Shown in pieces: positions 4,609-46,866 of a DNA stretch of 64,000 nt; position 1 is the first letter of the stretch, and each line of letters starts with the position of its first letter. The notes beneath the pieces are model-generated. The model was not told the DNA's origin and ran no database searches. It saw only the letters and a program-made list of their open reading frames with translations. The stretch is from Euglena gracilis (taxonomy: Eukaryota), in the NCBI GenBank assembly GCA_039621445.1, contig CP154954.1, positions 29,459,411-29,523,410 on the forward strand, given 5' to 3'. The position numbers were made by a program, and so were the translations under genes.

Positions 4609-4975
4609 CTGCCAGGCAGGTGTGGGGGCTTCGGCGATGGCTGATGCAATGCGTTGCGGGGTGTTGCTTTGTTTGGGACGCGGGGTTGGCACCAAACCCA
4701 CCCAGAGGCAATTTTGGCTATAAAAAAAAAACTGGCACGTCTGGGGGATGGTTGGGGTTGGGGTCAGGCTTCTTTTTACCAACCCCGGGGGAGGGGGAGA
4801 GGGGTGCCTGCCCATAGCACCACAGGGGGGTCGGTTCTGGCCCGGTGCCCGCCGACCAAGCAGATTTTCCCTTGAAAATGGGCATTTTGGCGCCTTCGGC
4901 GGGGGGGGGGGGCATAGGACGACCCACCTGGGGGTCGAAATAAATGCCCTCCCATTTAGCACCCTCCTCCCCCGG

Positions 4976-6392
4976 GGGCAAGCACCTCCAGACACATGGG
5001 ATTTTGGTGGTGTTGTCGGGATTTGTCGGGATTTGTCGGGATTTGTCGGGATTTCAACAACGGAGGTGGGGTCCCGCCCACACAAATAAGGGGGCATCAG
5101 AGCAAAGCAACAAAGGGCACAAAAAGACGTTGGATCCACGAAGCCTTGCCCATGAATCGGGTTTCAACCAGTGATTTCAAATCCTTTGTTCAGGTAAATG
5201 AATGCTAAGGCTTGCAGAGTATCAGCACTCATGTTCAGACGGTCAGATGTTAAGATATGGCCCATTTTCGAAAAAGTTCGCTCAGCTTGAGTTGCAGATC
5301 GTGGGGAGAGCAAATACACAATGGCCACTGGTGTGAGGGAGAGGTGGACTAAAAAAATGCATTTTTATTGCACCTTGTCAAAGAACCTGGGGAAAAAAAT
5401 AAAGAATCAAAACGTGCAAAGATAAAATAGCAACCGGTCTGGGAAAGAAACATTCCACACTTTCATAAAAAAAATCTCCAACTTTGACATGGGAATGTTG
5501 CATGCTGCAAAAGCTTTGACAACATCTTTACAGAACTCTTGTTGTCGCAGCCCTTTAGGAAAAAAAATATCCATCTTTCCAGAGACCATCGGCCTTTTTG
5601 GGGTTGGTTCTTCCTTTGTCTCACTGGATTCACGCTTCAATGGGCTTTGGACCTTTTGACAAAAAAAAGTGGAAAAAAAAAGCAAAATGACAAAAAATGC
5701 AACCTGTATGATGATTGGATTTGGTGTGGAGACATTTGGTGTTGTACTGGCAACCAAAGCTGCACGCTCCACCCTCTTCTTCACCATTTGAGCATGACTG
5801 CTCTCGACCCATCTCTTCTCACACCCCTTGAATATCCAACGCAATGACTTGATTGTATTCATTGAAGCAACCAGAGACTTTGCACACAAATTGTAATAAA
5901 CCTTGCCTGGGGGGGAGGAATTGAGACACTGTTGGACAGAAGTGCACACCTGGAATACTGTGTCCATGTGGATCGCTCTCAGCAACATCTGTCCAGCCTT
6001 CAGAATGGCAATATGCCACCCACTCAGCAACACTTCGACGTGATGCATGAGTGCTCATGAGAAGACAAAGAGTCTTGGAAGAAAGCCAGACAGAGAGAGA
6101 GAGAGAGAGAGAGGAAATTGCACGTTTCCAATCAAATAAAACCATCCCGCTCACTTGGGAACACTGGCCATTCCTTTTACCCTTTGGTGGCTTTGCAAAA
6201 AAAAATTTCCGGTGTTGTCGGGATTTGTCGGGATTTGTCGGGATTTGTCGGGATTTGTCGAGATTTGTCGGGATTTGTCGGGATTTGTCGGAACCCCACC
6301 TCCAGAAGGCCAAAAAAGTGTTGTTGGGATTTGTCGGGATTTGTCGGGATTTGTCGGGTTTTGTCAGGATTTGTCGCTGGAGGTGCTTGCCC
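4976..6392. mobile_element. Internally deleted DNA transposon with subterminal decamer arrays
   Basis: Perfect 16-bp TIR GGGCAAGCACCTCCAG / CTGGAGGTGCTTGCCC; (GGATTTGTCG)n at about 5013-5054 and 6214-6375. Confidence 0.8.
5164..6048 (-). pseudogene. hAT-superfamily transposase remnant (CGGBP1-like N-terminus plus C-terminal dimerisation domain; core deleted)
   Basis: About 5347-5164 reads VAIVYLLSPRSATQAERTFSKMGHILTSDRLNMSADTLQALAFIYLN (hAT dimerisation pattern); ORF 5407-6048 has FCKDVVKAFAACNIPMSKLE and a decayed Zn finger; 51-nt GT-AG intron at 5653-5703. Confidence 0.8.
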
Positions 6393-7156
6393 AGGGGGGA
6401 TGAGCACTTCCTTAAAAAGAAGCCTGGTTGGGTCGGGAATCAGACCTGACCCCCCACCAGGTTGCCAACCTACAAGGAAAAAAAGTCTCCAAATACGCAG
6501 GCTGCCCAACCTCGACACACACACACACACACACACACACACACCAGCAAGTTTCCATGCTTCGATTATATCATCAAATAAAATCAAGTAAAAAGCCATT
6601 GTTTTGCACAAAAGTGCTTCGTGCTCCTTTCTTAGGTGGCCAACCTCCACTTAACACGTAGTTGTCGTGTTCTTTTGAGCAACTGGTGTCTTTTTATTAT
6701 TGAAAATACAAATAAATGGCGACAAAACCCACATAATGAGGACTTTGAAAGTTAAAGTGCTCCAGAGCAGATGTCGCCACAACATTAAGCGCACCTTTCC
6801 CCCAAGTCAACACCGGAAAATGGTGAGGATCCACACACAGAGGGCCGGCGTGCAACCAGCAGTTCAAAAACCTGGACCCATAAACTCGGATTGCGCAAAA
6901 GACACAAAAAAAATACATGCTATTAAAAAAAATACATGGCACCAAATTTTTTTTGGATTGAAACTACTATCTGGCAGGGGTGTAAAACTGTCCACATCTT
7001 GAAATTACATTGCCCAAAGAGTAAAAATCTTTTGTTAGGTGCATCAAGGAAAGTATGTGATCAGTTGGATCCTGACATTGATTAGCCGTGAACTCTTCAG
7101 GAAAAAGAACCCTCAGAACAGCAAACTCTGATGACAATTTCGCTCAACACACTCAC

Positions 7157-7297
7157 CTTTCCGAAGTCATACAAGTCAGTGTCCAGCTTGCTTGAAAAGC
7201 GAAGCCCTTTGGCATCGAAGTGGTACGTGTCAGAGCTCCAGTATTCCACCATACCATCCTGGGACGCGCTCACCACGGTGTGGTAGACATGGTTGAA
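7157..7297 (-). CDS. PPWD1: PPWD1 exon 8
   Basis: ctcag|TTC ... AAG|gtgagt; FNHVYHTVVSASQDGMVEYWS...KLDTDLYDFGK matches [20 protein letters not shown]...KTDTDLYEFAK. Confidence 0.96.
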
Positions 7298-8077
7298 CTG
7301 AGAAAAAGGATGGGCATCAAAGCCACCAAAGTATGCCCAATTTCTCTGAGAACAAGAGCAGTCAACATTGACAAGAGCGGGTGTCCCGTTTTGGACGCTC
7401 TTTGGCGGTGCCAAAAAAAAAGTCAAAATGAACCTATGGTGGTGGTCTTTGTCATGATTTTTTTCATTTCAAACAAACCCCAGAAATTGACCATTACAAT
7501 ACCCCATCGTTTGCTTGTTTGTGAAATTTGGCTACCCCCGAAAGTGCTCCCCCAAAGGGTGTAGGATAGGCACACTGGGAAAAAGTATGGGAAAAAATAT
7601 TATGGGAAAATTGGGCAGTTTCCCGTGATTTTGTCTGGACTGTATGAACATATACATACATAACATATACATATATACGCATACAGGGCGGGGGTGAACT
7701 TTCACCCCCCCCCCACCTACCTGCACCCCCACCTTAGTTGCTCTAAAGCTTCTTGTCTGTTTATGGCTGGCGCTACCTTCACTTCTGGCCCAGTTTGCCG
7801 TGTGGTGAGTGGCAAGGGATCCCTTTCACCGGTGTTCTTTTGTTGCTCCACGTGGCCCCACCTACCCCATGCCTACTCCCGCCCCCCCCCCCCCCGGAAA
7901 CTGCCACCTGACAGGTTGGCCGGAACTGGGAACCCTGACGACTTTCTATCATCAAAGGTTGGCCAGTAACGGGGACCCTGGCAGTTTCCAGGGCGGGTCC
8001 CCAACAGGTTCTTGGGCATGGCAATTTCCCGGGGGGTAACCCTGACCCTAACCCTAACCACACAAATTCACCTTCGA

Positions 8078-8371
8078 CATACAGACATACATACATACAT
8101 GCATACATACATACATACATACATACATACATACATACATACATACATACATACATACATACATACATACATACATACATACATACATACATACATACAT
8201 ACATACATACATACATACATACATACATACATACATACATACATACATACATACATACATACATACATACATACATACATACATACATACATACATACAT
8301 ACATACATACATACATACATACATACATACATACATACATACATACATACATACATACATACATACATACA
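8078..8371. repeat. (TACA)n microsatellite
   Basis: Near-perfect tetranucleotide run of about 290 bp, preceded by CCCTAACCCTAA. Confidence 0.98.
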
Positions 8372-45280: not shown

Positions 45281-45530
45281 TACAATCAAAATCAAAAACA
45301 CCAAAATGAAACTGCAACATGTAAAAAAAGCCAGAAATTCTTAAGATGCAAAAAAATGCGCGAAAAAATCGAAAAAAAATGCGCAAAAAATGCGAAAAAA
45401 TGTGCATTTTCCCAAAAATCCGGAAAATGCGCAAAAATGCGAAACGCATTTCCCCCCCCTGCCAGTGCAGCGGATCGTTTTGGACCGGGGAAACGCTGGC
45501 AGTGGGACGGGGGCGAGATGGGGTAGGGAC

Positions 45531-45639
45531 GCGGTGCGGCGTAGACCAGGCTGTGCAGGGCGGGGCTGCCGAACAGCTCCAGCCCCTCGTCCTCGCTGCG
45601 CAGGTGGGGCAGGCTCCCCCGGCGGCGGGCAAAGCGGTC
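45531..45639 (-). CDS. Candidate exon of an unidentified gene
   Basis: ccctcgcag|GAC; GC3-rich DRFARRRGSLPHLRSEDEGLELFGSPALHSLVYAAP; GT at 45530. Confidence 0.4.
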
Positions 45640-46389
45640 CTGCGAGGGGGCGGGCAAACAGGGCAGTCCAGAAATGAAGCAAAAAGACCAGGGTGAGCTC
45701 CGGGCGCTGGAAATTCTTTGGGAATGCACCAAGACGTCCCAATATTGGGGGGGGGGGCACAGGCAATTTGAAAATTATTGGCCTTTTCCTTGCACAATAA
45801 TCCGGGAAAAAAACTGATTTTCTAGGCTTTGCCATGGCAGCTGGATTGGGGATCTGAATTGGTTTGAGTTGAATTGGTTTGAGGGACACCTGTGGAGGTC
45901 ATCTAGCACCTATGGTCATCCAGAGTCCCAGGCCCAATCGTGCCCAGTCACCCCCAGCACGCCAACAGAGATCCCAACCATCCCAACTTTGAGGGAGGTT
46001 GTTTGGCCATTTGTTGTTTGGCCACATTCTGGCGTTCTTTGCCCACTTTTTGCCCACTTTTAGCCCACTTTGGGCTGCTTCAACTTCTGGCTGTCACGAC
46101 ACCCTAACCCTAACGCTGGCCGCTTTTTTGCTGGGGGTCCACGACTAAAAAAAACCCCTGGTTCGGATACTTTTTGCTGGTTTTGACAATTCTTGGCCAA
46201 TTTCGCCAACGTTTGGTTGTTTGCTTTTGACTGCTTTTAGCAGCTTTCTGAAGCCTTTTGAGGACACTCTTGCCAACTCTTTTTTGCTCAGTGGCCAACA
46301 ATGGCCCCAAAGTGGCCAAAAGAAGCTAAAAAATGGCCTGAAAATCGCCCAGTCACAGAATGCAACATACGGGGGCCGTCAGTCAAAGC

Positions 46390-46832
46390 CAGGCTTTTGC
46401 TTAAGGGCCCGGGGGGGGGGGGGTGCTGGTTAGCCAATCGGCTAGACACTGGAAAAAGTGGACTAGCTAGACCCCCCCTCCCCCCACTAGGGGGGGGGGG
46501 GTCCGGGGGTCCCCTGGACTGGGAATTTTTTTTTCCTCCAGCGCACAGCGCCGGAGGAAAAATGAGGTTTTTAACAGGTTTTTGGCTGATTTTGTTCCAA
46601 AAATTCCCCAAAATGGCCAAAATGGGCATTTTTGGCCATTTTTGGGGGGTCCCAAAAAAATTTTTGGCGCTTCGCGCCGGTCACTGGAAAATTTTTTTCC
46701 ACTAGCTAGCCCTGCTAGCAGACCCCCTCCGGGGGGGATCTGCTAGAAAACCCACTAGCCAAATTTGGACTAGCTGCAGTCCAGCCCCCCCGGGGGGGGG
46801 GGGGGTACTGCAATCCCTTAAGCAAAAGCCTG
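46390..46832. mobile_element. CAGGCTT-type MITE with perfect 8-bp TSD (hAT-like)
   Basis: 18-bp TIR CAGGCTTTTGCTTAAGGG / CCCTTAAGCAAAAGCCTG; GTCAAAGC at 46382-46389 and 46833-46840. Confidence 0.92.
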
Positions 46833-46866
46833 GTCAAAGCCACTCCTGCCCAGTCATTTCATAGGT

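Follow-up and report, generated by a model that had tools for sequence, protein, structure and literature searches.

hAT-type transposable elements as a candidate source of non-conventional introns in Euglena gracilis

A 64-kb stretch of Euglena gracilis DNA (contig CP154954.1, positions 29,459,411 to 29,523,410; the whole stretch is called the window below) carries hAT-type transposable elements next to introns that lack GT-AG borders. Two of these introns, numbers 2 and 6 of a gene encoding a PPWD1-like protein (cyclophilin plus WD40), share their terminus family with one of the elements. We consider it reasonably probable that hAT-type transposons are the source of the nearby non-conventional introns, which would be excised through a geometry in which spacers of 3 and 5 nt add up to the 8-bp hAT target-site duplication. 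An earlier note, made from the bare sequence, had proposed that free MITEs (miniature transposable elements with inverted repeats), old introns and a transposase are stages of one introner-like system with inverted repeats doubling as splice signals; the observation behind it is confirmed and the interpretation is partly supported.

Results

A hAT transposase remnant between CAGGCTT ends

The element at 4765-6426 has perfect inverted ends (14/14), CAGGCTTCTTTTTA at 4765-4778 and TAAAAAGAAGCCTG at 6413-6426, and 8-bp flanks, GTTGGGGT (4757-4764) and GTTGGGTC (6427-6434), that are identical in six of eight positions. The minus-strand open reading frame (ORF) at 5164-5364 matches the C-terminal dimerisation domain of hAT transposases (hATC, PF05699), and its sole database relative found is P0029, a PF05699 protein of 147 aa, with 77% identity over 52 residues. 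No Pfam family was assigned to the other ORFs of the element. The earlier note had placed a hAT remnant in the same gene and had taken 4765-6426 for a MITE; the remnant is indeed present and lies within the element itself, which is a gutted, internally deleted hAT element rather than a plain MITE. As the hATC remnant is situated between CAGGCTT ends, this terminus is tied to the hAT superfamily. The autonomous CAGGCTT element that the earlier note wished to see was not found in the window, and a tblastn search with P0029 yielded no further copy there.

The CAG...CTG elements of the window are hAT-type, as seen from their 8-bp duplications, their ends and the hATC remnant. The duplications are perfect at 46390, 13588 and 2493 (those at 46390-46832 and 2493-2772 had been reported by the earlier note and were verified), identical in six of eight positions at 4765 and uninformative at 22397. 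The short inverted repeats pair in 14/14, 18/18, 11/12 and 15/16 positions and are all headed by CAG; the consensus head of hAT ends is (C/T)A(G/A). Of the transposase, the C-terminal hATC domain is present as a remnant only, while a catalytic core and BED zinc finger, the marks of an autonomous copy, were not found in the window. hAT elements prefer the target nTnnnnAn; judged by eye on few sites, most duplications fit one of its positions, and the reconstructed intron-2 site, CTGTTGAC, fits both.

CAG...CTG ends coincide with duplications more often than expected

We scanned for CAG...CTG pairs 40-4000 bp apart with at least 10/12 inverted identity, using 30 block shuffles as the null. Matching 8-bp flanks (at least 6/8) were found for 7 of the 148 pairs, three with 8/8 and four with 6/8, where about 0.3 would be expected; among the 2,175 pairs of the block shuffles only four reached at least 6/8 and none reached 7. 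With simple-sequence flanks removed, at least 7/8 identity was seen in 2/148 CAG-headed pairs with adjacent flanks and in 0 with the flanks displaced by 4 nt. A filtered scan over all heads gave no overall excess (17 adjacent versus 23 displaced), and only the CAG class stands out. Furthermore, the motif CAGGCTTYT occurs at 8 sites against 1.82 expected, a count reached in none of 100 shuffles. Six of these sites are at confirmed ends, namely the four ends of two elements and two intron-core ends, and the remaining two form the inverted pair 13292/15582, which has no target duplication.

Two of the families are represented in the DNA contigs at hundreds to thousands of times the baseline depth. 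DNA word depth is 52,046 in bin 13674-14147 (MITE 13588) and 689,163 in bin 22206-22679 (MITE 22397), compared with about 100-240 in unique bins. Immediately behind the MITE end at 22793, 30 DNA contigs diverge, as do 27 behind 10655, where a partial copy of the 22397 family inside intron 5 (77% identity) ends. High depth together with contig divergence at the ends indicates that these are real multi-copy mobile families.

Ends of introns 2 and 6 resemble the ends of element 4765-6426

The head of intron 2 is identical to the element terminus in 10/12 positions and its tail in 11/11; these matches, the start of intron 6 and the other termini and duplications listed in the earlier note are all present in the sequence. 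The null consisted of the window's 1,973 14-mers that start with CAG; the score of each was its highest agreement with one of 14 transposon ends. For introns 2 and 6, element 4765 is the best match at all four termini, with P = 0.006, 0.026, 0.006 and 0.084, the two ends of one intron being non-independent tests. Thus the claim that intron ends are closer to element ends than the CAG/CTG constraint predicts is borne out for two of the seven non-conventional introns (P = 0.006 for the better end of each) and fails for the other five.

Non-conventional introns with 3-nt and 5-nt spacers

Reads were placed on 9408-23600 from one RNA contig set (X15), two raw RNA runs (X21, X24) and one DNA contig set (X1), a span outside which elements 4765, 2493 and 46390 and introns 7-11 fall. 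Intron 2 was observed as a skip of 89 nt that can slide by 5 nt. It occurs in one RNA contig and in six plus two raw reads (runs X15, X21 and X24) and is absent from DNA (X1). There is no GT-AG option within the slide, and the borders are of GA..TT type. The core (12852..12772, CGG...CTG) has the head CGGGCTTCCTTT and the tail AAAGAAGCCTG, and the 8-nt flanks CTGTTGAT / CCGTTGAC are identical in 6/8 positions. Folding gave a terminal helix with unpaired tails, 3 nt on the 5' side and 5 nt on the 3' side. Intron 2, read as GAT-CGG...CTG-CCGTT/G (the slash marks the start of the next exon), with its helix confirmed, agrees with the published signature 5'-N3-CDG...CH'G-N5-6/R.

The core of intron 6, CAGGCTTCTCTTTT (start 9505) ... 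GGAGGCTTG, reads AAT-CAG...TTG-GCCTG/A, a G-U variant outside the strict signature. Its 5' side is shown by an RNA contig that leaves exon 6 at 9507 and goes on as exon-7 sequence, and its 3' side was placed from protein homology. The flanks, GCTGGAAT / GCCTGAAC, are identical in 5/8 positions, and in both introns every flank mismatch falls in the spliced-out part. The long arrays (ACAT)74 and (GAT)67, at 8077-8373 and 9208-9407, were assigned to intron 6.

Five further introns without GT-AG borders, skips of 366, 75, 715, 883 and 865 nt in RNA, are located in a second spliced transcript (19746-23212, minus strand). The 75-nt intron is covered by 34 raw-read start positions in X21, and its terminal helix has a z-score of -3.8 and begins at position 4, the model also pairing two bases per spacer. 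An unbiased search for the best terminal helix assigned a register of core plus 8 nt, with spacers of 3 and 5 nt followed by a purine in the next exon, to four of the seven introns (2, 6, 75-nt and 883-nt). Moreover, the strand of the second transcript as predicted from the 3/5 asymmetry agrees with the stranded library X24. DNA bins of intron 2 and of the 75-nt and 883-nt introns are at baseline depth; the repeated parts of the other non-conventional introns are nested inserts, with intron ends that are unique.

Free elements conform to the published splicing code

In silico, MITE 46390 reads AGC-CAG...CTG-GTCAA/A, which fits N3-CAG...CTG-N5 plus purine with paired ends. Folding of its RNA with the 3/5 flanking nucleotides gave a terminal helix that leaves a single 5' nucleotide and three 3' nucleotides unpaired. 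By inspection, elements 4765 and 13588 comply likewise. Free MITEs may be open to splicing where they are transcribed within an exon. The idea of one system with inverted repeats as splice signals stands in that elements satisfy the published code and intron 2 is spliced; no MITE copy was seen spliced from the RNA placed on 9408-23600. MITE 46390 was considered as an exonic insertion and rejected: its surroundings hold no recognisable coding content, and the open frame across the empty site is of low complexity and without a family match.

Other elements of the window

Features of the window are collected in Table 1. Terminal sequences differ among the units, so that several families are present. 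Blastn found no second copy of elements 4765, 46390 and 2493 or of intron 2 in the window, and a metagenome scan with the 22397-family terminus found nothing. Fragments of the 22397 family are located at 10465-10655, 15243-15307, 15693-15844, 29410-29486 and 39860-39918.

Table 1. Coordinates of transposable elements, introns and the PPWD1-like gene in the window (positions from its first letter).
Feature	Position	Strand	Length	Details
Internally deleted hAT element	4765..6426		1,662 bp	within GT-AG intron 8 of the PPWD1-like gene
hAT C-terminal dimerisation domain remnant (open frame)	5164..5364	-		PF05699, E = 2.5e-5, 24.4 bits, cut-off 21.4
MITE	46390..46832		443 bp	inverted repeats 18/18 CAGGCTTTTGCTTAAGGG; perfect 8-bp duplication GTCAAAGC, copies at 46382-46389 and 46833-46840
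Decayed MITE	2493..2772		280 bp	perfect 8-bp duplication GGCGGAGG (2485-2492, 2773-2780); weaker ends CAC.../...CTG, about 9/13 paired; in GT-AG intron 9, 37 nt from exon 10
MITE	13588..13944		357 bp	ends CAGACTTTCATT / CAGATTTTCATT (11/12); perfect 8-bp duplication ATCCCATG; upstream of exon 2, probably within intron 1
MITE	22397..22793		397 bp	ends CAGGGTTCGATATAAG / CAGGGTTTGATATAAG (15/16); flanks G8, uninformative; lies inside one of the second transcript's non-conventional introns
Candidate element	50323..51199		877 bp	ends CAGAACACGGTTTTCT (16/16); flanks CACGCGTT / AACACGTT, 6/8
Candidate element	31329..32609		1,281 bp	ends CAGCCCGAGTT (11/12); flanks TCTTCGTG / TCTTCTTT, 6/8
Weak CAG...CTG unit	40817..43210			from the inverted-repeat and flank scan
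PPWD1-like intron 2, non-conventional	12767..12855	-	89 nt	GAT + 81-nt core + CCGTT, next exon G
PPWD1-like intron 6, non-conventional	8579..9508	-	930 nt	AAT + core + GCCTG, next exon A
Non-conventional intron, second transcript	20424..20498	-	75 nt	GAT + core (TAGGGGGTAC...ATACCCCCTG) + CTTCA, next exon G
Non-conventional intron, second transcript	21404..22286	-	883 nt	GCT + core (TGGGCAATGGTGCA...TGCACCTTTGTCCA) + TCACC, next exon A; not slidable
Three other non-GT-AG introns, second transcript	19961-20326, 20560-21274, 22347-23211	-		paired ends; spacer sums 10, 7-9 and 12
PPWD1-like gene	637..13026	-		exons 2-12; truncated at window start

The inverted pair at 13292-15582, with CAGGCTTTT ends (10/12), surrounds MITE 13588 and high-copy repeats, and its flanks do not match; it may represent two half-elements without relation to each other, or one old composite element. 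The palindrome GCGC-NNN-GCGCCG occurs eight times against 0.03 expected (including 209-223, 15748-15762, 22603-22617, 46541-46553 and 46667-46679), near the centre of MITE 22397 and twice inside MITE 46390, between A/T runs. Near-variants are found in 2493, 4765 and the intron-5 elements, and it looks like an internal hairpin common to these MITE families. An apparent element at 41693-42335 was discarded, its "duplication" being a palindrome that extends a longer inverted repeat. A foldback-like unit, 41682-42346, has inverted repeats of about 35 bp (AAAACGGCCGTATCTCGGGCCAGGCG...), lies between inverted arrays of AAAATGGCC repeats and is outside the CAG...CTG / 8-bp type. In the region 15096-19361 the DNA word depth is very high, reaching 488,287 where the baseline is about 100-240, and the region holds a tandem array of 22 bp x 8 at 17901-18076. 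Raw RNA reads pile up on G/C-rich MITE arms (10590-10611, 19259-19284, 22459-22478) with poly-G/poly-C loose ends, and probably come from other copies or are sequencing artefacts.

The PPWD1-like gene and its neighbours

The window is euglenid nuclear DNA. Exons 2-12 of the PPWD1-like gene were located by tblastn on the minus strand between 13026 and 637, and exon 1 is probably at 16916-16978 on the same strand. The translation of a 59-residue exon is 86%, 84% and 67% identical to euglenid transcriptome proteins, the last labelled RCo033472, which we take to be from Rhabdomonas costata; fungal and algal PPWD1/cyp15 proteins follow. Introns 3, 4, 5, 7, 8, 9, 10 and 11 are GT-AG, and splicing of introns 3, 4 and 5 as such was seen in RNA. 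Intron 5 had been considered as non-conventional and was ruled out, the RNA showing a GT-AG intron slidable by 2.

The second transcript lies upstream of the PPWD1-like gene and, according to the stranded RNA run X24, on the same strand. A long ORF was sought in it in either orientation and none was found. Beyond 19746 its RNA contig carries on for at least 108 nt without counterpart in the 64-kb window, even when 12-mers are compared. The next exon may be more than 19 kb away, with the PPWD1-like gene nested inside, or the contig may be a chimera. An RVT_1 domain (E = 1.4e-12) is encoded in an open frame of 1,424 codons (54941-59215, minus strand) that probably belongs to a non-LTR (long terminal repeat) retrotransposon. 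Apart from RVT_1, PF05699 and a weak WD40 match, Pfam searches with single ORFs of the window found nothing.

Discussion

How insertions could become introns

Knock-in experiments have defined the signature 5'-N3-CDG...CH'G-N5-6/R with optimum spacers of 3 nt and 5 nt (Nomura 2025, PMC12501133). Since 3 + 5 = 8 is the length of the hAT duplication, excision by this rule would restore the pre-insertion exon exactly, and an insertion would be harmless from the start. We propose that the genome carries many non-autonomous elements of the hAT superfamily with CAG...CTG ends and 8-bp duplications, one of which retains a piece of transposase. A MITE in an exon would be read as [duplication][CAG...CTG][duplication], and cuts 3 nt before the paired CAG and 5 nt after its CTG partner would remove the element together with one 8-nt duplicate. 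Exonic insertions, harmless from the outset, could persist as introns and decay, and selection would then retain only the terminal helix and the spacing. Introns 2 and 6 would be old, decayed members of the CAGGCTT-terminus family of element 4765. We infer both the descent of the introns from transposons and the role of the 3 + 5 sum as the reason why the system tolerates insertions; this hAT family is a likely source of the nearby non-conventional introns. One strain of E. agilis has newly acquired an intron that is bordered by eight-nucleotide direct repeats (Milanowski 2016, PMC4770533), which is exactly what hAT insertion predicts.

Several findings speak against this proposal. The whole study covers one 64-kb window, a small sample. 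The target-site duplication of element 4765 is imperfect, its hATC remnant is short and barely above the threshold, and Pfam detected neither the catalytic domain (RNase-H-like core) nor a BED finger in its ORFs. Among the ten termini of the remaining five introns there is none that is similar to any of the 14 transposon ends (P = 0.08 to 0.99), and the terminus null itself depends on the choice of these ends. By blastn and inspection, the similarity of intron 2 to the hAT element does not extend beyond the terminal 12-14 nt or so. At the 31-mer level introns 2 and 6 are each present once, so that no young MITE-intron is seen. Three of the seven non-conventional introns have spacer sums of 7-12 instead of 8, and the strict CDG/CH'G pairing fits intron 2 alone, the others being TAG-CTG, CAG-TTG, TGG-CCA and TTG-CAA. 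Moreover, the published code tolerates a 3' spacer of 6 nt, which would fail to restore the 8-bp duplication.

Alternative explanations

The similarity of ends might also result from convergence or filtering, where splicing needs CAG/CTG and a stem, hAT ends start with CAG independently, and any further similarity reflects T-rich composition or chance. It is in line with this explanation that five of seven introns lack family similarity, that intron heads vary (TAG, TGG, TTG) and that the empirical null is looser than a uniform model, 12 of the 1,973 random CAG 14-mers reaching 9/11. We nevertheless regard it as unlikely. Synthetic introns with arbitrary stems are spliced, so that GCTTCTTT is not needed for splicing (PMC12501133); the same element is the best match for two introns within one gene, with P = 0.006 each; their flanks retain duplication-like identity of 6/8 and 5/8; and CAGGCTTYT is in excess (8 versus 1.8 expected), with 6/8 sites at confirmed element or intron-core ends.

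New introns with direct repeats could alternatively be made by double-strand-break repair, the MITEs being unrelated. This is how the eight-nucleotide repeats were read by the authors who described them (PMC4770533), and most introns studied here have no recognisable transposon relative. From break repair, however, one would expect neither repeats of a constant 8 nt nor inverted CAG...CTG ends, whereas hAT insertion predicts both, and elements with both occur in the window; we hold the repair origin to be quite improbable. Even less credit goes to the reverse direction, in which circular intron RNAs would be copied back to DNA and spread, making the MITEs mobile introns. Non-conventional introns are reported to be released as full-length circles (PMC11282704), and a reverse-transcriptase ORF is present in the window, but cut-and-paste transposition is indicated by the exact 8-bp duplications and by the piece of transposase that the same ends enclose, and the free copies hold no 3-nt/5-nt spacer as element sequence.

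hAT elements tend to move to linked sites. A spread of the CAGGCTT motif by local duplication or gene conversion in the PPWD1-like gene, with no transposition into exons, would account for the location of 6/8 CAGGCTTYT sites within 4765-15582, but it is the least probable of the alternatives, since the similarity is limited to termini in the correct inverted orientation with duplication-like flanks, MITE 46390 has the same head 30 kb away, and hAT local transposition would produce the clustering equally well.

Significance and relation to earlier work

The proposal bears on where the non-conventional introns of euglenids come from and on the logic behind their splicing code. Suggestions of a MITE-like origin go back to 2013 (PMC3935182) and recur in PMC11282704, PMC11170887 and PMC12501133, and by 2013 no transposable element had been identified in euglenids (PMC3935182). 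In the available text of PMC3935182, PMC4770533, PMC11282704 and PMC12501133 the origin is called unknown or hypothetical and no transposon is named; the word hAT is absent from the available text of PMC12501133, PMC11282704 and PMC11170887. Our literature search, to which subscription journals and supplements were external, found no paper linking hAT, 8-bp duplications and euglenid introns. The idea of a MITE-like origin is thus already known, and what appears to be new, in that we did not find it in print, are the hAT-type elements with a transposase remnant, the two introns of the same terminus family and the explanation of 3 + 5 as 8.

Elements with hAT hallmarks beside introns with the same termini turn the general MITE-like idea into a specific hypothesis. 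Under it, new introns should carry 8-bp repeats, the spacers should add up to 8 and position 6 of the duplication should be a purine. Tentatively, and with rather more doubt than for the window itself, we suggest that most non-conventional introns of euglenids (reported to make up 72% of E. agilis introns) are fossil hAT-MITE insertions and that the 3/5 rule exists because its sum is the 8-bp duplication. If so, the splicing machinery would act as an excision system at the RNA level that is fitted to a single transposon superfamily. In that case it might even have arisen from the way in which the hAT transposase recognises its own ends, or have evolved together with it, and introns would go on being gained whenever a MITE lands in an exon where the duplicated target has a purine at position 6.

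Comparison with known systems

Introns 2 and 6 and the five introns of the neighbouring transcript resemble the non-conventional introns of euglenids in having no GT-AG borders and paired ends, and in four of them the spacers are 3 nt and 5 nt long and the purine rule is obeyed. Intron 2 belongs to the CGG-CTG type, and variants of this type were shown to splice, as were synthetic 50-bp introns with arbitrary paired sequence (PMC12501133). Unlike in the published accounts of euglenids, elements with hAT hallmarks are found here beside the introns, and the 3 + 5 sum is linked to an 8-bp duplication.

With the hAT Ac/Ds system the elements of the window share 8-bp duplications, short inverted ends, the hATC domain and the occurrence of deletion derivatives and MITEs. 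The inverted ends of Ac/Ds-type elements begin with CAG or TAG. Giroux and colleagues reportedly described in 1994 a maize Ds spliced as an intron, a case showing that the removal of a hAT element from RNA is possible. Removal of Ds is imprecise and is carried out by the ordinary spliceosome via cryptic sites, whereas a non-GT-AG system using paired ends, with exact restoration of the exon, is proposed here.

Introner elements, for which a 2016 study by Huff is said to be the source, offer an analogy for how the system may work, and it is as an analogy that the "introner-like" label of the earlier note holds. As in the introners of Micromonas and Aureococcus and the non-canonical, transposon-derived introns of Fritillaria and Amoebophrya (PMC11282704), introns would be made at genome scale from a DNA transposon that has inverted ends and a duplication, and a single duplicate would go out along with the element. 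Membership in the introner class does not follow. Introners are near-identical, high-copy and spliceosomal, whereas the introns examined here are single copy and diverged, with a CAG/CTG code that looks non-spliceosomal. Near-identical copies acting as introns in different genes were not observed (baseline depth, unique intron ends), and neither was spliceosomal GT-AG splicing of the non-conventional introns at sites provided by the element or its duplication (borders of GA..TT type). If the proposal is true, euglenids would represent a second, mechanistically distinct case of genome-scale intron generation by transposons.

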